A stretch of 64,000 nt of DNA from a virus. Shown in pieces: positions 11,912-53,358 of the stretch (positions within the stretch are counted from its first letter, which is position 1; each line of letters starts with the position of its first letter). The translations under genes were made by a program, and so were the position numbers. The stretch spans positions 32,001 to 96,000 of IMG/VR virus record IMGVR_UViG_3300032331_001766; one strand, written 5' to 3'. The notes under the pieces are model-generated. The model searched no databases. It was not told the origin of the DNA and worked only from the letters and a program-made list of their open reading frames with translations.

Positions 11912-11925
11912 CTAAATGCTATAGT
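11897..11925 (+). promoter_or_regulatory. Sigma70-type promoter for the oxygenase cluster (leaderless)
   Basis: TTGACC-17 bp-TATAGT with extended -10 TG; ATG at 11932 lies 6 nt past the -10 with no SD. Confidence 0.75.
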
Positions 11926-11931
11926 ATATTT

Positions 11932-12564
11932 ATGTACTCTAGAAAAGAAGAAGTCTTTCATGGCATCTGGAAATATTCAGATGTTTTTACTCCAGAGCTG
12001 GATTTAATTAATAGAATTGAATCAGAAGTAGAAAAAGAAGAGTTTTCCTGGAGAAAAGGTACAGTTGGGTTAGATGCTGAATATCCAGAATACAGAGATT
12101 GTTATGATCTTAAATTAAGTAGACTAGGCAAATCTCATCCCTTATATCAGGATATTTATAATGCTCAAGTACCATGTGTAAATGATTATTGCTCAATGTA
12201 TACAATTGAAATGAATTATTGGGAATGGACTAATATTGTTAAATATGAACCAGGACAACATTTTCAAGAACATGCTGATCATGGCTGGTCATATATATCA
12301 ACTGTATCTTTAGTTGGATATCCAAATGATAATTATGAAGGCGGAGATCTTTATTTTCCAAAACTTAATGTAACAATAAAGCCAAAAGCTGGAGACTTAT
12401 ATATATTCCCATCAGCATATATTTATTCACATGTTGCAAGACCAGTTTTATCTGGAACAAAGTATTGTTTTGCTACGATGTTAGATTATAATGATGACGC
12501 ACATTCAAAAGAATTTGAAGATTATTTAGATAAAAAATATAACAAAGAAAAGAGATTAATATAA
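11932..12564 (+). CDS. 2OG-Fe(II) oxygenase, prolyl 4-hydroxylase-like (#1)
   Basis: HAD...NDNYEGGDLYF...KPKAGD...FPS...H...GTKY. The ORF-track start at 11881 (TTG) is probably too early. Confidence 0.88.
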   Translation: MYSRKEEVFHGIWKYSDVFTPELDLINRIESEVEKEEFSWRKGTVGLDAEYPEYRDCYDLKLSRLGKSHPLYQDIYNAQVPCVNDYCSMYTIEMNYWEWTNIVKYEPGQHFQEHADHGWSYISTVSLVGYPNDNYEGGDLYFPKLNVTIKPKAGDLYIFPSAYIYSHVARPVLSGTKYCFATMLDYNDDAHSKEFEDYLDKKYNKEKRLI

Positions 12565-13226
12565 TGTTACCAAATGCGGAACTTCTTTATCCAGGTATTA
12601 TTGTTTATAGAAATGTTTTTAGTGGATTAAATGTAATTGATAGGCTAGAAGAAGTTCTTTCTAATGATAGCTATGAAGAAAAATGGGCAGAGGCGTCTGT
12701 TGGATATTCTAAGCTAGATAAGTCTTATAGAGATTGCTGGGATCACCATATTAAAAAGAACATATTTGATGATACGGGTAAACCAGAATCTCAATTAAAG
12801 CTTGAATCAATATGGCAGGACTGCAGAGATGCACAAGATGCTGCTGTAGAAGATTATAGAGCAATGTTTAACTTACCGCCATTTGGATATTGGGAATCTT
12901 TTAATTTCATTAAATATGGTGCAGGTCAACATTTTCAAGTACATTCAGATCACGGATATTCTTATGTTTGTGTACTTTCTTCTGTTGGATATATTAACGA
13001 TGATTATGATGGCGGGGAACTATATTTTGATAAACTTGGACTTACCATAAAGCCAAAAGCAGGAGATCTTTATTTATTTCCATCTTCATATATATATTCT
13101 CATTCTGCAATGCCAGTTACAAAAGGTATTAAGTATTCTGTAGTTACAATGCTTGACTACTCAATAGCTACACATTCTCCAGAATATCGTGAGCTTGAAC
13201 AAAAGTATGCACTAGTAAAAGAATAA
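12564..13226 (+). CDS. 2OG-Fe(II) oxygenase, prolyl 4-hydroxylase-like (#2)
   Basis: HSD...NDDYDGGELYF...H...GIKY; close paralog of #1. Confidence 0.88.
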   Translation: MLPNAELLYPGIIVYRNVFSGLNVIDRLEEVLSNDSYEEKWAEASVGYSKLDKSYRDCWDHHIKKNIFDDTGKPESQLKLESIWQDCRDAQDAAVEDYRAMFNLPPFGYWESFNFIKYGAGQHFQVHSDHGYSYVCVLSSVGYINDDYDGGELYFDKLGLTIKPKAGDLYLFPSSYIYSHSAMPVTKGIKYSVVTMLDYSIATHSPEYRELEQKYALVKE

Positions 13227-13235
13227 GGAATATTA

Positions 13236-13946
13236 ATGATTAATTTAGAAGTTTATAGATCAGGTCCAGATTCAGCAAACATAGAACCTCTTTCTGGTAA
13301 AAGACAGTGGATGGATGATAGTCAAGAAAAGCATGCATATAGATGTTTCCCTTTGAGCCTATCAAATCAACTGGGATGGTCTTTATCTTTTCCAGAAGAT
13401 ATAACATTTATGTGGGATGGTGAAATTACAACATCTTCAGAAAACGTTAAAGTTCTTCAAGGAGAAAAATATTGTAGTACAGCTAGAGGAAATGCAACAA
13501 TTAGCTTTAATACAAATTTAACTTTTAGAACTGATGCAAATCATAGTTTACTATCATATCCAGTACCAAATCATTTTGTAGATGGAGCAACACCATTTAC
13601 AACTTTAATGAGCACATCATTTTTTGAAGGTCAGCTTCCAGTTTCTTGGAGAATTACAAGGCCATTTACACCAATAACAATTAAGGCAAATGAACCTTTT
13701 ATAGCAATTCTTCCAGTATCATTAACAGAACTTCATTCTTCAGTGGCACAAATAAAGCCAATAGATAACATGAAACCAATATATAGAGAAAAGCCATTAA
13801 CGCTTGAAGGAGCAATAGAGGCTGGGAAAAAAGCAGCAGAAAATGGTGGATGGACAGATTACTATAGAGATGCTGTTGATTATATGGGTAATAAATTAGG
13901 TGAGCATGAAGTAAAGTCAGTTAAGCTAAGAGTAGAAGGTCACTAA
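13236..13946 (+). CDS. DUF6065-like protein
   Basis: HAYRCFPLSLSNQLGW motif and C-terminal EPFIAILP, recalled as the DUF6065 signature. Confidence 0.6.
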   Translation: MINLEVYRSGPDSANIEPLSGKRQWMDDSQEKHAYRCFPLSLSNQLGWSLSFPEDITFMWDGEITTSSENVKVLQGEKYCSTARGNATISFNTNLTFRTDANHSLLSYPVPNHFVDGATPFTTLMSTSFFEGQLPVSWRITRPFTPITIKANEPFIAILPVSLTELHSSVAQIKPIDNMKPIYREKPLTLEGAIEAGKKAAENGGWTDYYRDAVDYMGNKLGEHEVKSVKLRVEGH

Positions 13947-14660
13947 ATGAATAAGATAGGATTTTGGTCAAATCGTATTGCAAATAACGATTCCACTATT
14001 CCTGTTCCCGCAAAGAAAATAATTCCAGAATGGTTTGCAAATGCAAAGAAATATTGGAAAGATGAAAATGATCAAGAGTTTATAGTTGCTCCAGAAGAAA
14101 AGGGTTTAGGGTTTAAATCTTGCCCAGCATTATTAGATATATTTAATTCTGGTTACCTTTTAGTTACACCGTGTGATGTAGTTATATATAAACAAGATAA
14201 TAAAAGATTTGCTGTATCTTCACCAGGCTTTGATGATTTTTGTGAAGCAAGGCCATTTATGGGTGAATTTAATTATCCTCATGGTTATGGAACAGATTCT
14301 TTTCATTGGTTTCCAAACTGGGGATTTGATTTACCAGAAGGATATAGCGCTTTAGTTTTACACCCATTAAATAGATATGAGTTACCTTTTTTAACAACAA
14401 ACGGTATAATTGATAGTGATAGGTATGGCTCTCCAGGATTGATGCCATTTTTTCTTAAAGAAAATTTTACTGGCATAATACCCAAAGGAACTCCATTTGC
14501 ACAAATAATACCCTTCAAGCGTGAAGACTGGAAAGCAGATTACAAATTTTTAGAAGAAAAAGAAATGATTGCAAGACATGAAAAAACTGCAGGTAAATAC
14601 CGTGTTCCATTTGGTGGAATATATAAAAGACATACCTGGGTTCCAAAGAAATACGAATAG
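13947..14660 (+). CDS. Conserved phage protein, probable distant DUF6065/dUTPase-fold relative
   Basis: KSCPALLD...GY, GIIDSD, GTPFAQIIPFKRE motifs, a type often found beside phage 2OG oxygenases. Confidence 0.5.
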   Translation: MNKIGFWSNRIANNDSTIPVPAKKIIPEWFANAKKYWKDENDQEFIVAPEEKGLGFKSCPALLDIFNSGYLLVTPCDVVIYKQDNKRFAVSSPGFDDFCEARPFMGEFNYPHGYGTDSFHWFPNWGFDLPEGYSALVLHPLNRYELPFLTTNGIIDSDRYGSPGLMPFFLKENFTGIIPKGTPFAQIIPFKREDWKADYKFLEEKEMIARHEKTAGKYRVPFGGIYKRHTWVPKKYE

Positions 14661-14668
14661 AGGATGAC

Positions 14669-15346
14669 ATGGATCAAAATTTAGCTTGGGATGAAGGAAT
14701 TAGAACTGCAAGAACTTCTATAACACCTTCAGGATATTTTGGAAACTCTACAGACAATATTGTTGAACTTGAGAATATTGTAACAGAAGAAGAGTGCGAG
14801 TATATCTTAGAGTTTGCTAAACAAAATGAAATTTGGGATGTAACCCGTTCTGCAAAAAATGAAAATGGTAACATCATTTATGATCACAATGTTTGGGCTA
14901 ATCGTGTTGCAACTAAGCCATCTTTAGATCAATGTGATCCAAAAGTTACTGAAATTCTTAATAATATTTATGCAAGAATAAAGCCAAAGATTGAAGAGCA
15001 TTTTAATGTGGAATGTTATCCAACTGGACCATGTGTTGTTAGATGGCCAGTAGGAACAATGCAATGGCCTCATGCAGATAAAGAACTTCATGAGGGTCCA
15101 GATGCTGGAACACCAGGAAACTTTCCATGGTATGACCTAGGAACAGTTATTTATTTTAACGATGACTACGAGGGCGGAAGACTTCATTTTCCAAAACAAG
15201 AAATTGCTTTTAAACCAAAAAAGAGAGCAGCCTACTTCTTTGTAGGAGACTTAAATTATATTCATGGGGTAGATGTAATTACAGATGGAGTAAGATATAC
15301 GTCTCCTTTATTTTGGACAATTACAAAACTGGAGGCAAACAAGTGA
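14669..15346 (+). CDS. 2OG-Fe(II) oxygenase (#3)
   Basis: HAD...YFNDDYEGG...H...GVRY. Confidence 0.88.
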   Translation: MDQNLAWDEGIRTARTSITPSGYFGNSTDNIVELENIVTEEECEYILEFAKQNEIWDVTRSAKNENGNIIYDHNVWANRVATKPSLDQCDPKVTEILNNIYARIKPKIEEHFNVECYPTGPCVVRWPVGTMQWPHADKELHEGPDAGTPGNFPWYDLGTVIYFNDDYEGGRLHFPKQEIAFKPKKRAAYFFVGDLNYIHGVDVITDGVRYTSPLFWTITKLEANK

Positions 15347-16143
15347 TGTCAAACTTTACAATTAAAACTTTATATCCAAAGATTGATGTTTACAAAGGTT
15401 TGCTTCCAGACCATAAAGAAATTTTTGAAGTAATTAAATCTACAGAAGATACAGAAGGAGAACACTATTTTAATAAGTGGACTCCATGGAGCGCATTTGG
15501 TCTTTACTCATCAACTAAATTTAAGGGTGGAGTCCAAGACCAATTAGGAAAAAATGAAATATTTGATAAACAGTATTGGGCAGCAGAAACAGTTTACGAT
15601 GCATATAAAATTGCAGTAGATGACTATATTGAAAGAAATAATGTTATTCTGCCAGAAGGATCAGAACTTGGCTCTTCCTCTTTTTGTAAATATCATAGCA
15701 ATTTAAATGTTTTAAATAATAACTTAACTATGCAATATCATACAGATTTTAAACAAAGCGAAAAAGATATGCCAGGAAATCAGTTCTTCCTAACCTGTAC
15801 TGTTTATATAAATGATGATTATGAAGGCGGAGACATAGAGTTTTATATTGATGGAGATACAGCAGCTTACAAACCAGAGGCTGGAGATATTATGGTGTTC
15901 CCATCTGGAGAGCCGTATTATCATGGAGTCAAAACAGCAAACAATGGAACTAAATATTTAATTAGAAACTTTATGGTTTACCCAAACCCAGGATCAAAAG
16001 AATGGCTTGAAAATCAAGCTAGATATGGTGCTGTTAAATGGGCAAAGATGGAAGAAGAAAGATTATCTAAAGATAAATATGGCGGAAACATATTTATTAA
16101 AGATGGCAAAAGGGTAGACAGTCCTGAAGAAAGGGATCAGTAA
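15346..16143 (+). CDS. 2OG-Fe(II) oxygenase (#4)
   Basis: HTD...YINDDYEGG...YYH...GTKY. SD GGAGG at 15331 supports a start at 15343 (GTG) or 15346 (ATG). Confidence 0.88.
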   Translation: MSNFTIKTLYPKIDVYKGLLPDHKEIFEVIKSTEDTEGEHYFNKWTPWSAFGLYSSTKFKGGVQDQLGKNEIFDKQYWAAETVYDAYKIAVDDYIERNNVILPEGSELGSSSFCKYHSNLNVLNNNLTMQYHTDFKQSEKDMPGNQFFLTCTVYINDDYEGGDIEFYIDGDTAAYKPEAGDIMVFPSGEPYYHGVKTANNGTKYLIRNFMVYPNPGSKEWLENQARYGAVKWAKMEEERLSKDKYGGNIFIKDGKRVDSPEERDQ

Positions 16144-16851
16144 ATGGAGATAGTAGCTTTAAAAGACGACGTATTTGTAATAGATGATTTAATTACACCT
16201 GCAGAATGTCAATCAATCATTGCTTATTTGGATGGTATTGTAAATGCTAATTTATTGCAATGGAACCAGATATCATTTTTTGGATCTTTTGCAATGGGTT
16301 ATTGGCCAAGTGATCCAAACTTGTTACACTTTGGTTTACCAGAAGATTATTTTGCACAACTTAAAAAGAAAATTAAAGATGCTGGAGAAGAATGTTTTAA
16401 GCGTGAATTTTCTGAAGTAAGTTATCATGCACAAAAATGGGTAGAAGGCGCATTTGCTGGTTTTCATTCTGACAATAGTCATGAAGATGGTAGTCCAAGT
16501 GCATTTTATAAAAGTAAGTATGCTGGCTTTTTGTATTTAAATGATAATTTTAATGGTGGTTTTTTAAACTTTAAGCATCATGATATTACCATAAAAGCAA
16601 AGCCAGGAAGACTAGCTTTCTTTAAGGGCGGTTATGGGAATGAGCATGAGGTTACTACAGTTAAAGATGGAGAAAGATATACCGTTGGTTCATTCTGGGA
16701 TAATGCTGATGAAGTTTATACACCAGAACAAGTTGCTGAATGGGAAAAAGAATTAAAAGAAACTAGAGCTTCTCAACAAGAAACATACAAGGAATGGGAA
16801 GAAGCCAAGAAAAATGGAATGATCCCACAATATATAGGTAAATATGATTAA
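16144..16851 (+). CDS. 2OG-Fe(II) oxygenase (#5)
   Basis: HSD...YLNDNFNGG...H...GERY. Confidence 0.88.
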   Translation: MEIVALKDDVFVIDDLITPAECQSIIAYLDGIVNANLLQWNQISFFGSFAMGYWPSDPNLLHFGLPEDYFAQLKKKIKDAGEECFKREFSEVSYHAQKWVEGAFAGFHSDNSHEDGSPSAFYKSKYAGFLYLNDNFNGGFLNFKHHDITIKAKPGRLAFFKGGYGNEHEVTTVKDGERYTVGSFWDNADEVYTPEQVAEWEKELKETRASQQETYKEWEEAKKNGMIPQYIGKYD

Positions 16852-17437
16852 AGAAGTATTACATCCAGAAATTCATTATTATAAAAATGTTATTTCTAAC
16901 CCAAAGGCTTTTGTAAAAGAGTTAGAGGATATGGATAGCTTTCAGTCAACAGTATCTCAAATATCAAAGTGGGAACAGTGGACTGCATCAAATCATGATG
17001 TTGTATATGGATCAGTTAAAAGATGCTTTTTAAATTTGTTTCAAAATACAACAGATGCTGATAGGGTAAATTCAAAGCTCTGCTCTATAGTTGCACACAA
17101 TGTAATTTCTATAGGTGAGCAATATTCCTTAGATTCTGGAATAGACCTCGGATATCTACCAGTATATTTTGGCATTAATAAATATAATGTTGGTGTTCAC
17201 ATGGGCGCACACGTAGATGCATATGATGGGGCTCAAGATGAATCTACTGTTTCTATGGTTATGTATTTAAATGATGACTACGAAGGCGGAGAGATAGAGT
17301 TTCCAGAGCATGGGATATCAATTAAACCAGAAGCTGGAAGCGTAGTCGTATTTGCCTCAAAGGGCGTTTTACATGATCCAAAACCTACAATATCTGGAAC
17401 TAAGTATATGATCCCCATATTCTTTTTCAAAAGATAG
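16844..17437 (+). CDS. 2OG-Fe(II) oxygenase (#6)
   Basis: HVD...YLNDDYEGG...H...GTKY. Confidence 0.88.
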   Translation: MIKEVLHPEIHYYKNVISNPKAFVKELEDMDSFQSTVSQISKWEQWTASNHDVVYGSVKRCFLNLFQNTTDADRVNSKLCSIVAHNVISIGEQYSLDSGIDLGYLPVYFGINKYNVGVHMGAHVDAYDGAQDESTVSMVMYLNDDYEGGEIEFPEHGISIKPEAGSVVVFASKGVLHDPKPTISGTKYMIPIFFFKR

Positions 17438-27758: not shown

Positions 27759-28091
27759 TTGGCAACTACAGTATATGACGTAGAAGAAATTACGTTACAG
27801 AATGGCGCAACAGTTAACCTTAAGCCATTAACAATTAAAGAACTACGCAAGTTTATGGCTGCTATCTCCAAAACTGGAGAAGCAAAAACAGAAGACGAAA
27901 CACTAACAATTCTTATTGACGCTTGTGCAGTAGCATTAGAAAAGCAATTACCAGAATTGGTAAAAGATCGTGACGCATTTGAAGATGTTTTAGACGTTCC
28001 TACCATCAACCGCATTCTTGAAGTTTGCGGAGGAATTAAGATGGACGACCCAAACCTTCTAGCGGCAGCGGTTCTGGCTGGTCAGAACTAG
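27759..28091 (+). CDS. Tail assembly chaperone (gpG-like)
   Basis: Between tube and tape measure; SD AGGAGG, TTG start; extended -10 TGTTATAAT at 27722-27730. Confidence 0.85.
   Translation: MATTVYDVEEITLQNGATVNLKPLTIKELRKFMAAISKTGEAKTEDETLTILIDACAVALEKQLPELVKDRDAFEDVLDVPTINRILEVCGGIKMDDPNLLAAAVLAGQN
28049..28055 (+). other. -1 programmed ribosomal frameshift slippery site C CCA AAC
   Basis: X XXY YYZ heptamer in the correct phase; the -1 frame opens at 28040 and runs to 28420. Confidence 0.85.
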
Positions 28092-28420
28092 ATTTAGCCG
28101 CTTTAGAGGGAGAAGTTTTTCTTTTAGGTAATTGGAAAAATTACGCAGAGATAGAAGAAAATCTTTCAATGCCAGAACTTATTCAAACATTGAAGTCAAT
28201 GCAAAAAACGGAATCAGAGAAAAGAAAATTTTTAGCTGGAATCCAAGGTGTTGATATAAATGATGAACAAGAAGAAAAAGAAGGTCCTACCTTTGAAGAT
28301 ATACAAAGAAGAGCACTTGGCATACATGCAAGCGGAGATGATATAACATCACTTCAAGGAGCATTAGCAGCACAAAGTGGATTTGGTATCGGAGCTGGAT
28401 TAGGATACACCAGGGAGTAA
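28049..28420 (+). CDS. Frameshift extension of tail chaperone (gpGT-like C-terminal part)
   Basis: The -1 frame reads PSSGSGSGWSELDLAALEGEVFLLGNWKNY...MPELIQ... and includes ORF 28169..28420. Confidence 0.8.
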   Translation, partial: PKPSSGSGSGWSELDLAALEGEVFLLGNWKNYAEIEENLSMPELIQTLKSMQKTESEKRKFLAGIQGVDINDEQEEKEGPTFEDIQRRALGIHASGDDITSLQGALAAQSGFGIGAGLGYTRE

Positions 28421-28429
28421 AATAGATAA

Positions 28430-31400
28430 ATGGCTGATGAGCAAATTGTAACCAATATAGTTGCAACCTCAGATTTTTCAAGTCTCATTGCCGATGTGCA
28501 ACGGACCACAGCAGCACTATCTAAATTACAGTCACAACTAGCTTTATCAAATACAGCATTAGCGAATCAGGCTGGCCAGATACAAAAAGGTTTTGGAGAA
28601 ACTCTAAGATCAACTGGCCAGTTTACTTCGCATTTTGTTACTGTTGGATCAGAGGTAGATAGATTTGGTAAAAGCCTTGATTCTGGAAGATTAAAGTTAA
28701 GAGATTATTTTAAAACTTGGCAAGATCACACAAAAAGTTCTGGCGGATTAATTAGAGGTTTAGCAAAAGAACAGGTTGCATTACAGCAATCTATAGTTCA
28801 ATCGCTTGGTAAAACTGCAGATGGAATGCAGAAGTTTAACGTACACGTTAAGACTGGGCTAGATGAAGTAGCAAACAGAACTGCATTAGCAAAGAAAGAA
28901 ATGCAGATATACAACAAGGTTATTCAAGACGGCGGAAATCAAATTATTAACTGGGGTAAAAATACTCAGTGGGCTGGTCGTCAGTTAACAGTAGGACTCA
29001 CAGTTCCAATAGCAGCATTTGGTGTGGCTGCATCAAAAGCATTTAGAGATGTTGACCAAGAGCTTGTTAGACTTACAAAGGTTTACGGTGGGCTTTCTGC
29101 AACTAGCGCAGTAGAGTTAGCTAAAGTTAGAAAAGATGTTTCTGCAACAGCTAAAGAATTAGCTGCAGCATATGGAGCGTCGTACAAAGATACAATTGCA
29201 TTAGCAGCAGATATTGCAGCAACTGGTAAACAGGGCAACGAGCTGCTTCAGTCTACAAAAGAAGCAACAAGACTTTCTATTCTTGGAGAAGTAGATAGAC
29301 AAGAAGCTATGAAAGCAACTCTTGCAATTCAATCAGCATTTAAAAAGAATACAACAGAGCTTGGCAAATCAATTAACTTTCTTAACGCAGTTGAAAACCA
29401 AACCTCAACAAGCCTTGCAGATTTAGTTGAAGCTATACCAAAAGCTGGACCAGTAGTTAAAGCACTTGGCGGAGACATAGAAGATTTAGCACTTTATCTT
29501 ACAGCTATGCGTGAAGGCGGAATTAACGCATCTGAAGGAGCAAATGCTTTAAAGTCAGCATTAGCATCTATCATTAACCCAACTAAAGTTGCTAAAGAAA
29601 TGTTTCAAGGATTTGGAATTGATTTAGGTGGGATAGTAACAAAAAATGCTGGAAACTTAACAGGAACTATATTAGAGATTCAAGCAGCATTAGAAACACT
29701 AGATCCTCTTAAGAAATCACAGGCAATTGAGCAGTTGTTTGGTAAGTTCCAGTTTGCAAGAATGAATGCTTTATTTGAGAATTTGGGTAAGCAGGGTAGC
29801 CAGACTTTACAGGTATTAGATTTAATGAAAGCAAGCTCACAAGATCTTGCAAATGTGGCTGGACGAGAATTAGCACAAATTACTGAGTCTGCTTCTGGTA
29901 AATATAGAAGAGCATTAGAGTCATTAAAGGCAGACTTAGCTAAAGTAGGAGAGCAGTTCTTAACAATTCAAACATTCTTTATTGAATTAGTAGATAAAAT
30001 AATTAACTTTGTAAACAAATTACCAGAGCCTATTCAAAAAGTTCTTACATTGCTAGCTGGATTCACTGCAGCAGCGGGTCCACTTATTATGTTAACTGGT
30101 GTATTTGCTAACTTCTTTGGATATGTAATTAAGGGAATTGGCCATCTAAGAGCTTTATTTAAGGGCGGCGAAGGATTTAAATTATTAACACCTCAAATAA
30201 TAGCTGCAAATCAAGCTGGAAGTTTAATAGAAAAAACATTTTATAGCGATGCTCAAGCAGCAGCGACATTAGCTAATGCCCTAAGTAATTTAAATAATGA
30301 ATTTAATCTTCTATACAATAAAGCAAACAACATTGCGCCAGTAGCACCAGCAATTTCAACAATGGCAAGCACCATGATGTTGCCAGGCGGAGCAACAGAA
30401 AGAGTTGTAAATAAGCAAAGCTCAATGCTAGGCAAGCCTTATTCAAGAGATATGTCTCATATGATTCCTTCAAAAACTGGACAAGCAGGAACAATGTTTG
30501 GAGTTCTTCCTGGAACTGCTCCAGTAAATAAAAGAATTAGTAATAACCCACAGATCTATGCAGCAGGAGATTTGCCAGATGTTCCTGGATTAACTAATGT
30601 TAATAAAGTTTCAACAGGTGTTGTAGCAGCAGAAGCTGCTAAATGGCACTCAATGACTGCAGCAATTGCAATGCAATCAGATGCAGAACTTACAGCATTG
30701 AAACAAGAAGTTGCTGCAACTGGAACAATTACACATGAATTGTCTTCTTCATACCAGGCATTGTTGCCTAAGATGACTGAAGTTATTCAGAAAGCTGTTA
30801 AAGAATCAGAGTTAATTGTTGCTCAGACACAATCTGGTAAAATAACGTTAGATCAAGCAAGAGCAAAAATCACTGCGCTTAATGCACAAATAGAAACATT
30901 ATTAGCATCAACAGCACAAGGAGTTGCAACAGCACAGGGAAGATCTATTAATGTTGGAATGGTTCCATTAACAAATCAACCAGCTGTATCTCCAACTGGC
31001 AAGAGCAACATGAAAGAAATGTTCCACAAGAGTGCTAACGCAAATCTTATTAATAAAATAGCTGGCGTACTTGGAGTAAGAACTTCAGGCGGAGGATACA
31101 GCACTGAAACAACAATGCCAAAGAGATTTGCAGAAGGTGGATTTGTACCAGGAACTGGAAACACAGATACTCATCCAGATTCACTACCTGCTGGATCTTA
31201 TGTTGTAAATAAAAAGTCTTCTGAAAATCCTATGTATAGACCTATACTTAGAGCAATGAAAACTGGAATTAGATTTAGCAAGGGTGGAGAAGTACCAGTC
31301 GTACTAACACCAGGAGAGTTTGTTGCTGACCCACAAACAGCAAGAGAAAACGCACCAGTTCTAAGATCTATTAATGCTGGTAATTATGCTGTTGGCGGAA

Positions 31401-34400
31401 CAGTAAGTATGAATAAAGTTAACTATGGAATTTCACCAAACAAGCAAAGAGTAAAGAGCCCAGCAATCATTGAAGATGCTTTAGCTAAAGTTATTGCATT
31501 TAACACAGATAAAAACTATGCTAAAAATAATTATACTGGTGCAGTATTAAATGACTCATGGGCAATATATGATGCAATAACTTCTGCAACTGGAAGACCA
31601 GCAGATCCAAAAGAAGCAATTTCAATTGCAGAAGCAATGGAAGAAGAAGCAAGATCAGCATCGACCTTTGGCGGAGTGCTAGATGAAAATGAATATCGTA
31701 AAGTCGCTAAAGAACAGATGACTACATGGAAAAAGAAACTTAAAGAACAGTATCCTTCTATAAGACTTACAAGTTCTAACAAAAGACAAAATGCAACTGA
31801 TCCAACTGTCAGAAAATTAATTTATGCAATGATGCTTAAGGATAAAAGATTTAGTAGAGATTACCTAAAAACGCTAGATGTTTCTGAAGGCGGAAATGCA
31901 GTAAGAGCACACAGAGATCAGCTTTCTCAGTCTAAGAATAAGAATAATCCTTATAAGTATTTAAGAGCAGCCGTTGTTACTCCAACAAATGTTAATTATG
32001 AAAGTAAGCAACTTCAGGATTATTATGGTATGGAAAACTATGAAGATAGAGTTTCTGCTGGACCAGTTCGTGCAGAGCAAGATGCAAAAAAGCTTCTTAA
32101 AGGTGTTGGTTTTAATTCACTTTCTTCATACGAAAAATATTTAAAAGAAAAGAAAGAAAAAAAGGAAGCAGCAAAGAAACCTAAAAAGTATAAAGAGTTT
32201 TTAGCAGCAAGAACTTTAGGCAAGCCAGCGTTGTTTACACCAGCGTTTGCAGGAGCTATTAGAAGAAATAAGGGCGGAATAATACCTGGACTAGCATCAT
32301 CTGTTATTAATAGACTAACTAATAGATGGCCTGGTAAAAAGCAATTCTATCCACAGGGCTACCAGTACATGCTTGGTAATCAAGATCCACTTCATGGTCC
32401 ACTTCAAATTGGAATGTCACAACAACTTGCAAGACATTCTGGGTATGATCCAAAAGATGTATCACTTCAAAGAGGTGTTGTATTTAGAGATGATAGGTTT
32501 AGTAGATTAAACATTATGCCTCAGTTCCTTACTGGAACAGCAGAAGACCGTGGCAGATATGCAACATCACAATACATGTCTGGAAACCTAGATATTATGG
32601 GACAAATGGAAAGATTGGGTAATCACCCTCTCGGACCAATTGCTGCAATGAAAACTCAACAGAAAAAGTTTAGCGGAAAATTATTTAGAGGAATTAAATT
32701 AGATAGAACATTTAAGGGTCTGCCAGAAGATTTAATTGAAGCAATTAAAATGGCAAGAGTTACTGGAGATGCTTCACCTTTAATTGGCAAAGAATTCATT
32801 ATGCGCCGATCATCTTGGAGCAAGAGCCAAAACATAGCAAGCTACTTTGCGCCAGGGAAAAATGTAGACCCAGAATCATTGCTTATAGAAGCTGCTGTAA
32901 AAAATAGAAATATTTTACCAGCAGGAGACATGTTCCCAGATAAAGTTTTCCAGGCTCCAGGAGGACAAAATTGGGGCGGTGGAAGATTTAATAATGGATA
33001 TAGATCAGAACAAGAAGCAATATTTGGTGGCAAGTTTAAGATAGTAGGATTTGATAAAGGCACTCTTCAGGTACAAACAGTTGTCGATGGAGCAAGAGAA
33101 GATGGCGGACCAACACAAGCTGGCAAGTCTTATATAGTTGGAGAAAATGGTCCAGAAATATTTATTCCAGAAACAAATGGAAATATAGTTCCAAATGCTG
33201 GAGTAAGCGGATCTAGAAAAACAGGCGCTATGGTTGCAAACTATGGTGCAAGCATGGCTGGGTATGGAATTGCAAGCAAGTTAGCTCCAGGAAATATGTT
33301 GGCACAAATTGGTGGCGGATTATTAGGCGATGTAGCTGGAAATATGATGTACAACAAGATAATGAATATTGGTCAAGCAGCTGGATCAGCAGCAAACAAA
33401 ACTTCATTATTAACAAAAGCTTTCCAATTCTTTATTAAGATGCCTGGACCAGTTAAGTTACTTGCTGCAATTGCTGGAGTAGGAATGGCAATTCAAGCAG
33501 TCAATAAAAAAATTGAAGAGCATAGAAGAATTGTTAATTCAGCATTTGGATTAGAGGCTTCAACTGTAGCAAAGCTTGGACTACAGTACACAACCCTTGA
33601 AGATAAGATGAAGGATTATCGCAAGGCACAAGATTTAGCAAATGCTTCTGCTGCAGCGTTTAAATATACTACAGATAAAGTTGGCGGAGCTCAAGGAATA
33701 GATATGACTCAAGAAGAGCTAGATGCTCTTAAGAAGTCATCAAAGAAAGATTTTAAAACAGAAATATCAATGTTTAATACAGCAGGCGGGAATGAAGTTA
33801 TTCAAAAAGCTACACAGCTTAAAGCAATGTTTGTATCATCTGGAATGGCAGTACAGGATGCAAATGAATTAATTTATGCATTAATATTAAACTCTAATAA
33901 GGCAGAAAGCGCATTAACCGCACTTGGAGACAAAGGATTTGGTTCAATTCAAGATAAGGGTACAGCAGCAGCAGCAACACTTAAAACATACTACTCCGTT
34001 ATTGCAAAAGGAAATACTGATCAAATTGGTAAATCCGTTGATTCCGCATTAAATGCATATATAAATCTAGAGACATCTTTAGTTAATATAAATGATAAGA
34101 CAAAGCCTATTGTAACTGAATCAGAGGCATACCTAAAGGTTCTTAATAAAATAAAAAATAGCAATGCTGGGAATGCAGAGTTAGGTGATGAAATTTATCT
34201 AGCACTTTCTAAGCAGAATGCTGAGCTTGGTAAGATAATAAATACCACAGACACATTTGCATCTGTAATGGCAAAGGTTAAATTAAGTACTTCAGGCCTT
34301 TCGTTAGACCTTGCAAATATGGGATCATCTGCTGCAACTGCTCTTTCAATAGTAGTATCAAAGCAACAAGATACTCTAGGATCAACAACTGGCCCCTTTG

Positions 34401-35869
34401 CCAAGCTTGCAAGAGATATTCAAAACACTGGAAAAGCAAGTGCTGATCAAATTGTAAAAACTTCACAGATTTCTGCAGATGCATTAAATAAGCAGATAGA
34501 TTTACATAATAAGAATATAAAAAAGATTAAAGAAGAAGCGGATGCCAGAAAGAAGGCATTAGACGAACAGCTTTCAGATGAGACAACATTACTTCAAATT
34601 AAAAAGAAGCAGATGGAATATGCTGATGCAGTTGCCGCTGGAGATATGTCTAGAGCTGCACAAGCGCAATTAGATATACAGGCTTTAACAAGAGCTCAAG
34701 AAGTTACTGTAGCAAAGCGATCAATTGACGACAAGGCTGAAAAAGATATTAAGGCTCAAGAAGCTGCAATTGATGCGTTAAATAAAAAGCTTGATGGACT
34801 TCAAAAAACAGTAAATGCTGCACAAGCAAATGCATCTGCTGCACAAAAGAAATCTGCTGACCTTCAGTCAATGATGGATGAACTAGTTGCATTAACTGTA
34901 GCTGGAGCGGATGGAGTTGACTCAAAAGAATCTGCACGTAGAGATGCACTTGTAAATAAATTAACAAAGGCTGGATATAAAGATATTGCTTCTAAGATAA
35001 CAGGAGCAGTTGGCGGAAGATACGAAGGCAGCACGTTTGTTCCTTCAGGAGATAAGTTAGCAGAATTAAGCAAGGGTTCATTTAATGATGCATATAATGC
35101 TTCAAAGAAAGCTTTGGCAGTTTACATAACAGATCCAGAAACAATAGCTTTATTAGGTGGATTAGGAAAGGGAGAGACTCCTGGATTCCAGCCACCAAAG
35201 GGAACACCAAAAACTCCTATTATTAATCCTAAAACTCCAGTAAAAGATGTTTCAAAAGAAAAGACAATTCTTGATGCAGCAAAAGCTGCAGCTGGTGGGA
35301 AAAAACAAACAACAATGGTTAGCATTAATGATATTGCTTATGAGATATTTAAGTACGGCAACTCACAGTATTTGATGCCAAAGGGCACAAGCGGAAGTGA
35401 AATTTATGAATACCTATTTGCAAATGGAGCAGTTACTAGAGGTAAACGAGTAACTGACTTAAAGAGAAACTATAGCATAGGTGGACTAGTATTTGGAGCA
35501 GGAACTGCAACATCTGATTCAATACCAGCAATGCTTTCAAATGGAGAATATGTAATTAATGCTGGAGCAGTAAGTGCATACGGCAAAGAAGTATTTGATC
35601 AATTTAATAGTAGAAAGTTTGCTACTGGAGGAATGGTTAATCCTTCATTTAGTGTTCCTTCTGGAGCAGTCTCACTTGGCAATAACATGGGTTCACGATA
35701 TAATGGTGGAGGACAGGTTTACAATTACAGCGCAGGAGGAATTGTCATTAATCCAGCGCAAGGACAAAATGAAAAACAAATTGCAGAATACGTAGTTTCA
35801 ATTATGGATGCAAAAAATGGCTTAAGAGCAGCAAGCACTGGAGATAAAGGACGGTACCTAAGAACATGA
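28430..35869 (+). CDS. Tape measure protein with internal cargo domains, including a putative ADP-ribosyltransferase
   Basis: 2479 aa, Ala-rich helical; TP901-type TMP core in the N-terminal third; follows the chaperones; internal non-helical inserts. Confidence 0.92.
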   Translation: MADEQIVTNIVATSDFSSLIADVQRTTAALSKLQSQLALSNTALANQAGQIQKGFGETLRSTGQFTSHFVTVGSEVDRFGKSLDSGRLKLRDYFKTWQDHTKSSGGLIRGLAKEQVALQQSIVQSLGKTADGMQKFNVHVKTGLDEVANRTALAKKEMQIYNKVIQDGGNQIINWGKNTQWAGRQLTVGLTVPIAAFGVAASKAFRDVDQELVRLTKVYGGLSATSAVELAKVRKDVSATAKELAAAYGASYKDTIALAADIAATGKQGNELLQSTKEATRLSILGEVDRQEAMKATLAIQSAFKKNTTELGKSINFLNAVENQTSTSLADLVEAIPKAGPVVKALGGDIEDLALYLTAMREGGINASEGANALKSALASIINPTKVAKEMFQGFGIDLGGIVTKNAGNLTGTILEIQAALETLDPLKKSQAIEQLFGKFQFARMNALFENLGKQGSQTLQVLDLMKASSQDLANVAGRELAQITESASGKYRRALESLKADLAKVGEQFLTIQTFFIELVDKIINFVNKLPEPIQKVLTLLAGFTAAAGPLIMLTGVFANFFGYVIKGIGHLRALFKGGEGFKLLTPQIIAANQAGSLIEKTFYSDAQAAATLANALSNLNNEFNLLYNKANNIAPVAPAISTMASTMMLPGGATERVVNKQSSMLGKPYSRDMSHMIPSKTGQAGTMFGVLPGTAPVNKRISNNPQIYAAGDLPDVPGLTNVNKVSTGVVAAEAAKWHSMTAAIAMQSDAELTALKQEVAATGTITHELSSSYQALLPKMTEVIQKAVKESELIVAQTQSGKITLDQARAKITALNAQIETLLASTAQGVATAQGRSINVGMVPLTNQPAVSPTGKSNMKEMFHKSANANLINKIAGVLGVRTSGGGYSTETTMPKRFAEGGFVPGTGNTDTHPDSLPAGSYVVNKKSSENPMYRPILRAMKTGIRFSKGGEVPVVLTPGEFVADPQTARENAPVLRSINAGNYAVGGTVSMNKVNYGISPNKQRVKSPAIIEDALAKVIAFNTDKNYAKNNYTGAVLNDSWAIYDAITSATGRPADPKEAISIAEAMEEEARSASTFGGVLDENEYRKVAKEQMTTWKKKLKEQYPSIRLTSSNKRQNATDPTVRKLIYAMMLKDKRFSRDYLKTLDVSEGGNAVRAHRDQLSQSKNKNNPYKYLRAAVVTPTNVNYESKQLQDYYGMENYEDRVSAGPVRAEQDAKKLLKGVGFNSLSSYEKYLKEKKEKKEAAKKPKKYKEFLAARTLGKPALFTPAFAGAIRRNKGGIIPGLASSVINRLTNRWPGKKQFYPQGYQYMLGNQDPLHGPLQIGMSQQLARHSGYDPKDVSLQRGVVFRDDRFSRLNIMPQFLTGTAEDRGRYATSQYMSGNLDIMGQMERLGNHPLGPIAAMKTQQKKFSGKLFRGIKLDRTFKGLPEDLIEAIKMARVTGDASPLIGKEFIMRRSSWSKSQNIASYFAPGKNVDPESLLIEAAVKNRNILPAGDMFPDKVFQAPGGQNWGGGRFNNGYRSEQEAIFGGKFKIVGFDKGTLQVQTVVDGAREDGGPTQAGKSYIVGENGPEIFIPETNGNIVPNAGVSGSRKTGAMVANYGASMAGYGIASKLAPGNMLAQIGGGLLGDVAGNMMYNKIMNIGQAAGSAANKTSLLTKAFQFFIKMPGPVKLLAAIAGVGMAIQAVNKKIEEHRRIVNSAFGLEASTVAKLGLQYTTLEDKMKDYRKAQDLANASAAAFKYTTDKVGGAQGIDMTQEELDALKKSSKKDFKTEISMFNTAGGNEVIQKATQLKAMFVSSGMAVQDANELIYALILNSNKAESALTALGDKGFGSIQDKGTAAAATLKTYYSVIAKGNTDQIGKSVDSALNAYINLETSLVNINDKTKPIVTESEAYLKVLNKIKNSNAGNAELGDEIYLALSKQNAELGKIINTTDTFASVMAKVKLSTSGLSLDLANMGSSAATALSIVVSKQQDTLGSTTGPFAKLARDIQNTGKASADQIVKTSQISADALNKQIDLHNKNIKKIKEEADARKKALDEQLSDETTLLQIKKKQMEYADAVAAGDMSRAAQAQLDIQALTRAQEVTVAKRSIDDKAEKDIKAQEAAIDALNKKLDGLQKTVNAAQANASAAQKKSADLQSMMDELVALTVAGADGVDSKESARRDALVNKLTKAGYKDIASKITGAVGGRYEGSTFVPSGDKLAELSKGSFNDAYNASKKALAVYITDPETIALLGGLGKGETPGFQPPKGTPKTPIINPKTPVKDVSKEKTILDAAKAAAGGKKQTTMVSINDIAYEIFKYGNSQYLMPKGTSGSEIYEYLFANGAVTRGKRVTDLKRNYSIGGLVFGAGTATSDSIPAMLSNGEYVINAGAVSAYGKEVFDQFNSRKFATGGMVNPSFSVPSGAVSLGNNMGSRYNGGGQVYNYSAGGIVINPAQGQNEKQIAEYVVSIMDAKNGLRAASTGDKGRYLRT

Positions 35870-36330
35870 TAATGCCAAGAGGATCCATCCTTCAAATAGA
35901 AGCTAAAGATTTATTAGCAAGTCCAGCTGGAACCAGCTTAGTTTGGAATAAGGTTACAGAGCACAATAGATCTGCTTTTGATATGAGCCCAATGAGAATT
36001 GAGCGCACACAAAGAATGTCCAATGGGTCATTAAGAAAGTTTTATATTGCAGATAAATATAGATTTAACTTAGGCTGGGACATGCTTCCTTCATATAGAA
36101 CTCTAACTGTTGACGGTGCATGGGGAGCAGAAGACCTAAGATCTTTTTATAATAGCGCAGAAGGCCAGGGCACATTTAAGATTCGTGTAAACTTAGCAAA
36201 GACTGGATCAAACCAAGAGTCAAGTGGATATGAAGAGTACACAGTAAATATAACTGGATGTAACTTTGCAATTGCTAAGCGTGGGCTACAGCCACATTGG
36301 AGTGTATCTCTCTCACTGGAAGAAGTATAA
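35866..36330 (+). CDS. Distal tail (Dit-like) protein
   Basis: Immediately after tape measure; 154 aa. Confidence 0.6.
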   Translation: MIMPRGSILQIEAKDLLASPAGTSLVWNKVTEHNRSAFDMSPMRIERTQRMSNGSLRKFYIADKYRFNLGWDMLPSYRTLTVDGAWGAEDLRSFYNSAEGQGTFKIRVNLAKTGSNQESSGYEEYTVNITGCNFAIAKRGLQPHWSVSLSLEEV

Positions 36331-39300
36331 TGATTACTGCATCCGATGATTTAAAAAATGTATTAAAGCAAAATGTCTCAGTAAAGACATCTACTCAGAC
36401 TACCATCGAATATAATATGAACTCATTAATTGATGGTATAACTGTCACATCTACAAATACAGATACAGAGTATACAAACAAAATTGAAAATTGGCCAAGC
36501 GGAAAGCCAAACCCATTTAAAAAACTTTTTCCAATGGATTCAGTTATTAAACCATTTAGACCATTAAATCCTGGAATCAGATATTTTATATTTAATACTA
36601 ATGATCCTTATAAAGCTATAATTGATCCACGTAAAATTTCTTACCCAACAGCAAGTCCTAGAACTTACTATCCAGGAATATCAACTTTTTATAAATATTG
36701 GGTAAGCCCAGAAGGTTCAAATGCTAATCTTACAGTAACATACAAACAAACTTCATCAACAGGCGGAAACAAAGCAGCACTTGCAAATAAGATAATTATA
36801 AGATTTGAAAAATATCATCAGCTTCCTTCTGGATACACTGTAACAATTACACCAGTAACTGGATCTCCAATAACAACTTCTACATATACAGCAGATTCTA
36901 ATGGACAAGCTGCAATATATTACAACGGAACTACGTGGACAAATATTGCACCATCAGAACCAGTTTCATATGCTTCACCGCAAGAAATTAAATCAATTAC
37001 TTTAAATGCAACAAATCCAAGCGGCACAAATATAATTGGAGTTATAGAGTTATCTGCTAGATGGATAAAAGATATATCTTCAGACATTATAGATTTTTCT
37101 GTAAACAAAGAATCTTCTGATTCAGCAGATGGCATTCTTCCAGTTGGAATTGTAACAGCCAATACCTTAAGCATAAATTTAGTTAAATATGATCAGACAG
37201 CTCTTAAGTATGTAAACTATAATAGAGAGTCTACCTCTTTTGATAGCACACTCACCTACCTTGCAAAGAATGCTGAAATTAAAACATACATAAATGTTCA
37301 TCATGCAGCAGGCTCAATAACAAACGGATCTGATAAATACGATAAGCTAATCCAAGGAACATTCTATATTGACTCCTCTGAAATTGGAGAATATGGAGAT
37401 GTATCTTTAACTGCGTTAGACTCAGCAAAGTATCTAATGGAAACTTATGCCCCAGAGATTATATGCGAAGACTATCCAGTTACTGCAATATTTAGAAGAC
37501 TACTAGACTCAGTAGGGTTTTCTAATTACGGATTTAACATTAAAGATAACGAAACATCTGTACCCACAATTCAGTATTGGTGGAGCGATGGAACGCTAAC
37601 TGTATGGGAAGCAATACAAGAATTATGTAGAGATATTCAAATGAACGCATTTGTAGATGAGAATAACATTCTTCAATTTTATAGCAGAGACTACATATAT
37701 GATGCAAGTACTAGAACTACCAACTGGGGATTTAATTATGCCACCGACGGCACAACCCTTGCAAACATAGTACAGTTCTCACAAAAAGAAGTTTCATCAG
37801 CAAACTCAGTAAAGGTTTTATGGCAAAGCCCATTGACATCAAACTACAATGGAACATCTGGCCCACTCTGGGAATCAGCAGAAGCATTTCTATCTGCAGG
37901 TGCTTTAAGAAAAACAATTACAGCAAACTCAAATGCAGCAAGTACCGAGCTTTCTATTGATACAGTTGTGCTCGATAACTACTCTTTACAATACAGTTTA
38001 TATAATTTTCAAGGATACGTTCTTATTGATTCTGAAATAATAGAGTTTGATGCAATTGAATATCAGTATACAGATCTTTCTAATGCACCTCAAGTAGCGT
38101 GGCTAACATCTCAGTCAGATGTAAGCAAATATCGTGCATTATCTAAACCAGGATATGCAGATCCTAAGCTTCCAGAAACTGCATACTTTAAGCCATCAGG
38201 CAGATACAGAGTTAAAACCAGAGGGGCGCTTGGAACAACACCAGCATTTCATGCTGCAACAGCAAATACAAGATTAAGCGAATGGTCTCAATATACAAAC
38301 AATGGATCTGGTAAAGTCGGTTCAATTACATCAATACCACTAGACCCGTCAACAGCAAATAAATATAAATCATATTTAACAATATCTAATACTAATACTG
38401 CAGCAAAAAGTTATAGCTTAGCTTATAGGCCATTTAGCGCAGTTACAATTCCATCTAGCACAAACGTAACTGTAACTGGAGAAAGCGGAACAGTAACAGT
38501 AAAGAGTTACACAGAATCGTATTTTAGTTTTGGAACAACATTATTTATTCAATCTGATATTACTGATACAAAAGGAAAGTATCCAAAGCAAGGTGGAGGT
38601 CTAGGATTCTTTGTAAATTCTTCTGGATCAGATGGCTACTTTATTTTATTAGAAACATTGTCTTCTGCTGCTTCAACTGGACAAAAAACAATTAGAATAG
38701 CAAGAATGAAAGCTGGCGTACTTACAACTTTAACTGATAGCCAGAAGACTGATCAAAAAACTTTATCAGCAGTATTTGGAAATCAGTCACACATTATAGA
38801 TGTAAAAGTAAAACTATTAGGTAAGTTTATTTATATAGATGCATATATAAATGGATTTAAAATATCCGCAGTAGACCAAGCAACAGCAGCCAATGCTGGC
38901 CTAATAGCTCCAACAACAAACGCTGGACTAATTTGCCACCTACCAAGCACTACTGGAATATATGATTATATATATGGAATTGATATATCAAAAGCTAAAT
39001 ATATTTCTGGAACATCAAATATTTATCAAGGACAATTTTCAAACGATTTAGTCGAGACTGCTTTCGGAGACATCATATATAATGCAAATACTTCAGAAGA
39101 CGGCATACCAGTAACTAAGACCTCGATAGATGAATTTGGAACTGTGGTTAGAGAGATAGCTAAGGTTACAACTAAGTTTGATAGCCGACCAGCATATCCT
39201 CTTAAATGGACAACAGGCATGAATAAGTTTGCAAAGATACTTGGTTCAAAAGTTTCAAACTTTGGCGGGGAAGCATACGTGCTAAACAATTCATCATCTA

Positions 39301-39677
39301 CTATTCCTTTGGCAGATGGAGGATTTTCAAACTTCTATGTATACGGAAACACATTAGGTCAATCGGGGCAGCTAGAATATTCAACAGATGAGTCTGCAGA
39401 ATATGCAAACAAAGAGCCTGTCGTATTTGAATCTAAATGGATTCAGTCTTTGTCGGATGCAAAAGCTTTGGCCACATGGATTAAGCAAAAAGTTATAAAC
39501 AGAGGTAAGATTGTAGAGCTTTCAATATTTGGAAATCCAATTATTGGGGTTGGTGATATAGTTACAATTAATTATCCTTATAATGGATTTGCGGGCACCG
39601 AAAAACTTATTGTTACAAACGTTAATCAGTCATACTTTGAAGGATTGGAGACTACCATTAGCTGCAGAACCCTGTAG
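36330..39677 (+). CDS. Tail tip/hub protein
   Basis: Large protein after Dit; C-terminal GNPIIGVGDIVTI motif of tail hub proteins. Start reassigned to ATG 36330 (TAATG overlap). Confidence 0.7.
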   Translation: MITASDDLKNVLKQNVSVKTSTQTTIEYNMNSLIDGITVTSTNTDTEYTNKIENWPSGKPNPFKKLFPMDSVIKPFRPLNPGIRYFIFNTNDPYKAIIDPRKISYPTASPRTYYPGISTFYKYWVSPEGSNANLTVTYKQTSSTGGNKAALANKIIIRFEKYHQLPSGYTVTITPVTGSPITTSTYTADSNGQAAIYYNGTTWTNIAPSEPVSYASPQEIKSITLNATNPSGTNIIGVIELSARWIKDISSDIIDFSVNKESSDSADGILPVGIVTANTLSINLVKYDQTALKYVNYNRESTSFDSTLTYLAKNAEIKTYINVHHAAGSITNGSDKYDKLIQGTFYIDSSEIGEYGDVSLTALDSAKYLMETYAPEIICEDYPVTAIFRRLLDSVGFSNYGFNIKDNETSVPTIQYWWSDGTLTVWEAIQELCRDIQMNAFVDENNILQFYSRDYIYDASTRTTNWGFNYATDGTTLANIVQFSQKEVSSANSVKVLWQSPLTSNYNGTSGPLWESAEAFLSAGALRKTITANSNAASTELSIDTVVLDNYSLQYSLYNFQGYVLIDSEIIEFDAIEYQYTDLSNAPQVAWLTSQSDVSKYRALSKPGYADPKLPETAYFKPSGRYRVKTRGALGTTPAFHAATANTRLSEWSQYTNNGSGKVGSITSIPLDPSTANKYKSYLTISNTNTAAKSYSLAYRPFSAVTIPSSTNVTVTGESGTVTVKSYTESYFSFGTTLFIQSDITDTKGKYPKQGGGLGFFVNSSGSDGYFILLETLSSAASTGQKTIRIARMKAGVLTTLTDSQKTDQKTLSAVFGNQSHIIDVKVKLLGKFIYIDAYINGFKISAVDQATAANAGLIAPTTNAGLICHLPSTTGIYDYIYGIDISKAKYISGTSNIYQGQFSNDLVETAFGDIIYNANTSEDGIPVTKTSIDEFGTVVREIAKVTTKFDSRPAYPLKWTTGMNKFAKILGSKVSNFGGEAYVLNNSSSTIPLADGGFSNFYVYGNTLGQSGQLEYSTDESAEYANKEPVVFESKWIQSLSDAKALATWIKQKVINRGKIVELSIFGNPIIGVGDIVTINYPYNGFAGTEKLIVTNVNQSYFEGLETTISCRTL

Positions 39678-53265: not shown

Positions 53266-53338
53266 GCCAGAGTAGCCCAGCGGTAGAGGCGGTAGACTTA
53301 AAATCTATACAGCGTGGGTTCGAATCCCACCTTTGGTA
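53266..53338 (+). tRNA. tRNA-Leu (anticodon UAA), short variable loop, CCA not encoded
   Basis: Acceptor GCCAGAG/CTTTGGT + A73; anticodon arm GTAGA-CTTAAAA-TCTAT; T arm GTGGG-TTCGAAT-CCCAC. Confidence 0.9.
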
Positions 53339-53358
53339 CACAATAGAAAACGGCGGAC

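Follow-up and report, generated by a model that had tools for sequence, protein, structure and literature searches.

A putative ADP-ribosyltransferase cassette inside a phage tape measure protein

The tape measure gene and its internal module

We analyzed a 64,000-nucleotide stretch of viral DNA (positions 32,001 to 96,000 of the IMG/VR virus record IMGVR_UViG_3300032331_001766; referred to here as the window) in which a tail gene carries, in the middle of its reading frame, a module resembling ADP-ribosyltransferases (ARTs). The gene is a single uninterrupted open reading frame (ORF) of 7,440 nucleotides (window positions 28430 to 35869, + strand, like all protein-coding features located below) that encodes 2,479 amino acids (aa). 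We identified its product as a tape measure protein (TMP) because it contains a PhageMin_Tail domain (PF10145; aa 239 to 438, positions 29144 to 29743; Pfam E value, 2.9e-28; 99.5 bits against a cut-off of 33.2), because nine PHROG tape-measure families match its N-terminal ~800 residues (best E value, 4.7e-124), and because the flanking genes follow a head/tail order. In JGI annotations, its relatives carry the name "TP901 family phage tail tape measure protein," and its length, gene order, and hydrophobic segments all fit a TMP of the TP901 type. An earlier reading of the letters and their ORFs, made without database searches (i.e., the sequence-only reading), had placed an ART inside a TMP, a placement borne out by PF10145, the PHROG families, and the gene order.

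The module spans aa 1279 to 1560 (RRNKGG to AREDGG; positions 32264 to 33109), with limits set by the sequence-only reading. Its larger, C-terminal part (aa 1363 to 1560; positions 32516 to 33109) is the putative ART catalytic core, as supported by an AF2 model and by Foldseek and VIA matches. When 1.84 billion representative proteins were scanned with aa 1279 to 1560 by HMMER, 43 clusters matched, and in nearly all of them the module lay within proteins of 2,200 to 3,700 aa (i.e., TMPs), at approximately residue 1,200 to 1,400. A further 52 module-matching loci were found in IMG/VR. Conservation was counted over 123 distinct module sequences, down to ~35% identity, with the sequences having a residue in the given column as the denominator.

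Three motifs expected of an ART of the R-S-E class stand out in these sequences. The arginine R1420 (codon at positions 32687 to 32689), which lies in a G-x-L-[FYH]-R-G motif, is conserved in 120 of 120 homologues. The counterpart of the STS motif is S1462-W1463-S1464 (positions 32813 to 32821); S1462 is conserved in 121 of 121 homologues, within the general pattern R-R-[S/A]-S-[W/F]-[S/T], in which R1459 and R1460 are invariant. The ExE motif, E1527-Q-E1529 (positions 33008 to 33016), follows an ARTT-like loop, and each of its two glutamates is conserved in 122 of 122 homologues. Given this invariance in ~120 sequences diverging to ~35% identity, the motifs exceed what chance would produce. 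All three had been pointed out from the letters, and they were found where they had been quoted: KLFRG with R1420 at nucleotide 32687, RRSSWS covering S1461 to S1464, and SEQEAIF at nucleotides 33008 to 33016. The serine motif thus stands, but its assignment to S1461 does not, because this residue is replaced by alanine in 16 module sequences and the invariant serine is S1462.

A fourth motif, N-Q-D-P-L-H-G-P-L-Q-I-G (aa 1317 to 1328; positions 32378 to 32413), is near-invariant at the N terminus of the module. In its consensus form (N-x-D-P-L-H-G-P-L-Q-I-G; referred to here as the DPLHG motif), 115 to 117 of 117 sequences retain N, D, P, H, and G, and the motif is placed 117 to 148 aa ahead of the serine motif. 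It co-occurs strictly with the ART (both were present in 89 proteins, neither in 140). We considered the motif as a part of the TMP backbone and rejected this assignment because it occurs exclusively with the ART. Possible roles of the motif are processing, the binding of a partner, and regulation.

Predicted fold and sequence relationships

The AF2 model of the whole module, based on a 41-sequence alignment, had a pLDDT of 73, with values of 80 to 94 in the core and below 50 in the DPLHG segment. The model of the core (aa 1363 to 1560) had a pLDDT of 84.9 and a pTM of 0.80. It starts with three N-terminal helices, which are followed by a strand containing R1420 (model residues 50 to 61), a helix, a strand ending with S1462-W-S1464 (residues 93 to 102), a short helix (residues 105 to 109), a long strand, a low-confidence loop, and a strand that begins at E1529 (residues 167 to 180). 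This order of elements is what we take to be the canonical R-S-E topology of the C3, VIP2, and iota structures, and the spacing of 42 aa between R1420 and S1462 presumably equals that in iota Ia (R295 to S338).

The elements that define the class can thus be located one by one in the model. The N-terminal helices precede a split beta-sheet core; the putative catalytic arginine, in L-F-R1420-G, is of the aromatic-R-G kind and lies on the first core strand; the STS motif appears in the variant form S1462-[W/F]-[S/T]1464, whose register relative to STS is uncertain by 1 to 3 residues; and E1527-Q-E1529, of the [Q/E]-x-E form, is found where the ARTT loop ends and the strand starts.

Foldseek searches of the PDB with the whole module (E values of 3.8e-5 and weaker) gave 28 matches with E values of <1e-3, all 28 of which were ARTs. 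The top ranks in the PDB were held by Vis, C3bot, Certhrax, HopU1, CDTa, Tre1, iota Ia, and C2-I (E values of 3.5e-5 and weaker; probability, 1.00). The Foldseek and VIA matches of the core were all R-S-E ARTs, with model residues 7 to 190 aligned to whole catalytic domains. In BFVD, the fold matches consisted only of phage ARTs, of ART fusions to head-morphogenesis, portal, or capsid proteins (including minor capsid proteins), and of ModA. The comparison with ART structures that the sequence-only reading had suggested as a check thus came out in favor of its interpretation.

On the basis of the models, the module almost certainly has the ART fold, and it is likely to be catalytically competent; by topology and spacing, R1420, S1462, and the ExE glutamates would come together in one active site. 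An ART likeness arising as a modelling artefact, or from a chance alpha/beta arrangement, is scarcely credible to us. Also very improbable is a nucleic acid (i.e., host or phage DNA or RNA) as the substrate. R-S-E enzymes of the pierisin/Scabin type and some phage and defence ARTs provide the precedent for such a target, but the best matches of the module are to protein-modifying enzymes (C3, iota, CDTa, VIP2, Vis, Certhrax, Tre1, SpvB, and ExoS), Scabin scored far lower, and no DNA-binding element was recognised. The ExE form itself points to arginine as the acceptor, by analogy with iota, VIP2, SpvB, and Alt.

Similarity at the sequence level was much fainter. The Pfam model ADPrib_exo_Tox (PF03496; cut-off, 23.4 bits) did not match the module at E values up to 1, and a six-frame search of the genome with this model at E values up to 10 returned nothing; 3 of 41 module homologues touched it, at an E value of ~0.06. 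The neighbors of the module in a protein atlas were weak (0.84 to 0.87), and some of them carried PF03496 or Mod_ADP_RT. In a loose local hhalign comparison with a profile of the SpvB family (pSLT spvB plus six homologues), the two were collinear over 133 columns with a nonsignificant probability of 3.4%. This alignment paired R1420 with R471, E1527 with E536, and E1529 with E538, and set the STS motif of SpvB on R1459-R1460 plus a gap, at most 3 residues from S1462. A forced global hhalign comparison was meaningless and was discarded. A search with the SpvB ART domain matched four phage records, too few for an improved profile. Because no Pfam ART model reaches its threshold, the ART assignment was made by fold and motif and not by sequence similarity. 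Judging from the models, the module is a separate, unnamed sequence family that shares the ART fold with PF03496 and is not a member of PF03496. It had no match in 50,697 GenBank phage records (DNA or protein) or in 185,579 prokaryote species genomes.

An optional cassette in a variable region of the TMP

More than 4,700 proteins of comparable length are homologous to the TMP over its N-terminal 840 aa. The module was present in 41 of the 113 nearest TMP relatives (66 to 99% identity) and absent from the other 72; among close IMG/VR loci, 16 had it, 51 did not, and 13 were too short to judge. Four relatives (P0056, P0057, P0060, and P0062) are 91% identical in the N-terminal part and yet are without the module. 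The module is thus an optional cassette present in some close relatives. In BLASTP comparisons with relatives without the ART, the alignment ends at aa 946 to 1129 and resumes at aa 1518 to 1590, with 110 to 300 aa of unrelated sequence in between. Since close relatives hold unrelated sequence between conserved blocks, we regard the center of the TMP (approximately aa 947 to 1589; positions 31268 to 33196) as a hypervariable cargo slot.

This distribution bears on whether the module is an enzyme at all. A noncatalytic ART-fold domain could bind NAD+, a nucleotide, or a host protein and act as a structural or receptor-like spacer of the TMP. Such a role would suit the great sequence distance from all curated ART families, the unusual RR-S-W-S context, and the DPLHG segment, for which no counterpart was identifiable, but it would leave unexplained why all four residues are invariant in ~120 sequences diverging to 35% identity. 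Inactive ART-fold domains usually lose the arginine, the serine, or the glutamate. Furthermore, most close relatives lack the module, so that it is dispensable for the TMP, which argues for an accessory effector and not for a structural part. We rate the noncatalytic binder as quite improbable.

The cassette is followed by a junction, GG-P-x-x-x-G-x-x-Y-[IL]-V-G-E-x-G-P-E (aa 1559 to 1580; positions 33104 to 33169), that is kept in most homologues, and PHROG TMP families match at aa 1551 to 1603. The alternative inserts of relatives are also bounded by similar short GG motifs. Within the window, modules of the form [R/K/N]-x-x-G-G recur at insert edges and near the C terminus of the TMP (positions 31127 to 31400, 32264 to 32281, 33095 to 33169, and 35471 to 35700); either "...P..L..GE[F/Y]V" or "Y[IL]VGE.GPE" comes after them, and the same type of junction occurs in relatives without the ART. 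Directly ahead of the ART cassette is another insert, of ~290 aa and not ruler-like (aa ~986 to 1278; positions 31385 to 32263). It is rich in Lys, Arg, and Tyr, had no Pfam or PHROG match, and is limited to the closest relatives (P0002 fully, P0018 and P0035 partly).

Two longer relatives combine the ART with further domains. The TMP of P0105 (3,745 aa) carries CHAP (aa 2484 to 2565) and LysM (aa 2630 to 2678) domains in addition to the ART, and that of P0149 (3,199 aa) carries an OmpA-like peptidoglycan-binding domain (aa 2458 to 2551). The sequences of these two proteins point to a second cargo slot ~900 to 1,100 aa beyond the ART.

The genes around the TMP gene are kept across 68 related loci, for which those without the ART were drawn from IMG/VR. 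Upstream lie genes for a portal, a head maturation protease, a capsid-type structural protein, a head-tail adaptor, and an Ig-domain protein, followed by two small ORFs (110 and 83 aa; positions 27759 to 28420; phrog_10504, function unknown). The families of these two ORFs were present in 17 of 17 ART-bearing loci and in 49 to 51 of 51 loci without the ART; from their position, they may encode tail assembly chaperones. Downstream are a 154-aa ORF and a 1,126-aa minor tail protein (positions 35866 to 39677; phrog_10359; E value, 2.5e-78), beyond which lie fibre-like genes. Eight tandem ORFs of 197 to 276 aa each occupy positions 11881 to 17437 (+ strand), just before the portal region, and one tRNA-Leu gene (anticodon TAA) was found at positions 53266 to 53339.

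The source record of this uncultured phage (113,080 bp) was rated complete by CheckV, the large ORFs are all on one strand, and the G+C content is ~36%. The lack of any detected integrase or resolvase gene in this genome and of prophage copies of the module in the 185,579 prokaryote species genomes fits a virulent phage. Its nearest cultured phages belong to the Streptomyces BE and BK clusters (~127 to 133 kb), with 57% identity in the portal and 37% in the N-terminal part of the TMP. Streptomyces was rejected as the host, as it does not fit the ~36% G+C content of the window; given this composition and the lack of prophage relatives, the host is probably a different bacterium.

Proposed delivery into the host cell and comparison with known systems

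Three hydrophobic or glycine-rich stretches of the TMP are relevant to how the module might act. A transmembrane-like segment lies well ahead of the slot (aa 535 to 571; positions 30032 to 30142; Kyte-Doolittle peak, 1.85). Directly behind the slot are a glycine-zipper-rich segment (aa 1595 to 1640; positions 33212 to 33349), with GxxxG-type matches at aa 1595, 1607, 1625, and 1629, and a second transmembrane-like segment (aa 1667 to 1695; positions 33428 to 33514; Kyte-Doolittle peak, 1.57). The latter two are kept with or without the ART; the zipper, for example, was seen in P0056 and P0057. Glycine zippers are common to TMPs and to Tde1, a type VI secretion (T6SS) effector, which needs them for translocation into target cells (PMC10240207).

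The explanation that we favor, and consider reasonably probable, is that the module is a virion-delivered ART effector inside a TMP, similar in function to T4 Alt; catalysis, delivery, and target are what we infer. The ~280-aa optional cassette would consist of the conserved DPLHG segment and a mono-ADP-ribosyltransferase domain of ~195 aa of the R-S-ExE type (i.e., of the C3, VIP2, iota, and Alt kind). The TMP would be assembled into the lumen of a siphovirus-type tail, where the module is probably not compactly folded. Upon infection, the TMP would leave the tail before the DNA does, the two segments behind the cassette (glycine zipper and transmembrane) would insert into the cytoplasmic membrane, and the module would reach the NAD+-containing cytoplasm and then fold. 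There it would transfer ADP-ribose to one or more host targets, favoring infection by host takeover or counter-defence. The precedent of T4 Alt, the wall-acting cargo of this TMP lineage, and the requirement for the zipper in Tde1 lend plausibility to such delivery by analogy.

Several observations weigh against this explanation. Searches of Pfam, PHROGs, and the PDB sequences (by phmmer and with a 41-sequence profile) were all empty for the window module, and profile-profile comparison with the SpvB family was not significant (probability, 3 to 5%), the arginine motif alone being aligned (R1420 on SpvB R471). The serine motif, S-W-S after R-R, is atypical, and the loop before ExE is 10 to 25 aa longer than usual and was modelled with low confidence. 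We know of no phage for which entry of the middle of the TMP into the cytoplasm has been established. The tail lumen would offer little room for a folded domain of 20 kDa, of which there would probably be several copies, so that the domain would need to be stored unfolded. Finally, an active ART would be made late in the producer cell and is without a recognisable antidote: the ARH (PF03747) and macrodomain (PF01661) families are absent from the 113-kb genome (the search controls were positive), and no ORF family within ~10 kb covaries with the ART (best Fisher P value, 0.05, in the wrong direction).

Another conceivable site of action is the producer cell. An active ART or NAD+ glycohydrolase might work there late in infection and modify host proteins, the partners in tail assembly, or the TMP, with its presence in the virion being incidental. 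The TMP is made in many copies in an NAD+-containing cytoplasm, the fold and the invariant catalytic residues fit this possibility equally well, and a missing antidote would be of less consequence for an enzyme that acts late, in a cell that is to be lysed anyway. Nothing would be gained, however, by embedding such an enzyme in the interior of a structural protein, at a cargo-swapping site beside membrane-inserting segments, and the other cargo of the lineage (CHAP plus LysM, OmpA-like) makes sense only at entry. We therefore judge late action in the producer cell unlikely and retain the virion-delivered effector as our preferred explanation.

The same cargo allows a more far-reaching proposal, which we put forward tentatively and regard as possible at best. 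The TMP may be a modular multi-effector injection platform, in which the central slot swaps cytoplasm-acting cargo and the second slot swaps wall-acting cargo (CHAP plus LysM, OmpA-like). The central slot would be bounded by the short GG-containing junctions, with the glycine-zipper segment behind it serving in translocation. The ART, together with its DPLHG segment, would be threaded through the membrane, refold, and perhaps be cut free, and a host protein would be ADP-ribosylated before any phage gene is expressed. If true, this proposal would provide direct evidence for entry of the central region of a siphovirus TMP into the cytoplasm.

Delivery of the virion-borne effector, as favored above, likewise carries a testable claim, namely, that a part of a siphovirus TMP has to gain access to the host cytoplasm. 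What becomes of TMPs after ejection, and with what topology, is poorly resolved, and a built-in enzymatic reporter would make the question directly testable. The phage probably brings a ready-made host-modifying enzyme into the cell with the contents of its tail, as far as can be judged from the predicted structure. With the module, the phage enzymes of host takeover or anti-defence would gain an ART family that is a sequence orphan and escapes Pfam, and the module brings to light a large environmental TMP lineage (>4,700 homologues) that exchanges cargo cassettes at a fixed site. An ART within a TMP was not described in the literature searched, although absence there is not proof.

Several known systems share some of these features. 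Polyvalent proteins are multidomain proteins predicted to enter the cell with the DNA, and ARTs are their commonest protein-modifying domain (PMC5512222). Some relatives of the TMP resemble them in combining an ART with wall hydrolases. The ARTs of polyvalent proteins, in contrast, are of the H-Y-D (Tox-ART-HYD2) type and are accompanied by processing metallopeptidases, and the same source makes no mention of tape measure proteins (PMC5512222); here, the active site is R-S-ExE, and Pfam detected no peptidase family in the TMP. Other ARTs are fused to parts of injection machines or delivered by a T6SS, as with Tre1 (PDB 6DRH/6DRE), the Listeria ART-ARH pair (8ZA7), and an Aeromonas VgrG-ART (P0049). 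These are bacterial weapons with cognate immunity (an ARH or a binding inhibitor), whereas for the module no ARH, macrodomain, or covarying gene within ~10 kb was found that would make it one half of a toxin-immunity pair like Tre1-Tri1 or ART-ARH.

A further group is formed by MuF (head-morphogenesis) proteins to which toxin domains, VIP2-like ARTs among them, are fused (PMC5576092), as in the Microbacterium phages Percival and Goodman (PMC7302621). The likeness lies in an ART that is fused to a virion structural protein, is optional in close relatives, and is proposed to be delivered when the DNA is injected. The MuF carrier is internal to the capsid, its toxin is C-terminal, and the phages are mostly temperate, whereas here the carrier is a TMP, the ART is internal, and the phage shows no signs of temperateness; PF10145 alone was found by Pfam in this protein, which sets it apart from the MuF toxins.

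The closest functional parallel is T4 Alt, a virion-packaged ART that is injected with the DNA (summarized in PMC5512222). With Alt and its paralogues ModA and ModB, which are R-S-E enzymes of a virulent phage, the module shares a phage ART of the R-S-ExE type that is carried in the particle and would act at the onset of infection; the present phage is apparently virulent as well, and ModA-type proteins are among the BFVD matches. Alt is a separate protein packaged in the head, whereas the module is an internal segment of a TMP without detectable sequence similarity to Alt, for which we infer both activity and injection.

The known enzymatic cargo of TMPs (peptidoglycan hydrolase, CHAP, LysM) is likewise an in-frame catalytic module, and the same lineage carries CHAP plus LysM or OmpA-like domains. 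Such cargo acts on the wall outside the membrane, whereas an ART needs cytoplasmic NAD+, so that this segment of the TMP would have to enter the cytoplasm. ARTs carried in the virion (T4 Alt, MuF-ART) and enzymatic cargo of TMPs are each known, and a putative NAD+-dependent enzyme in a TMP joins the two.

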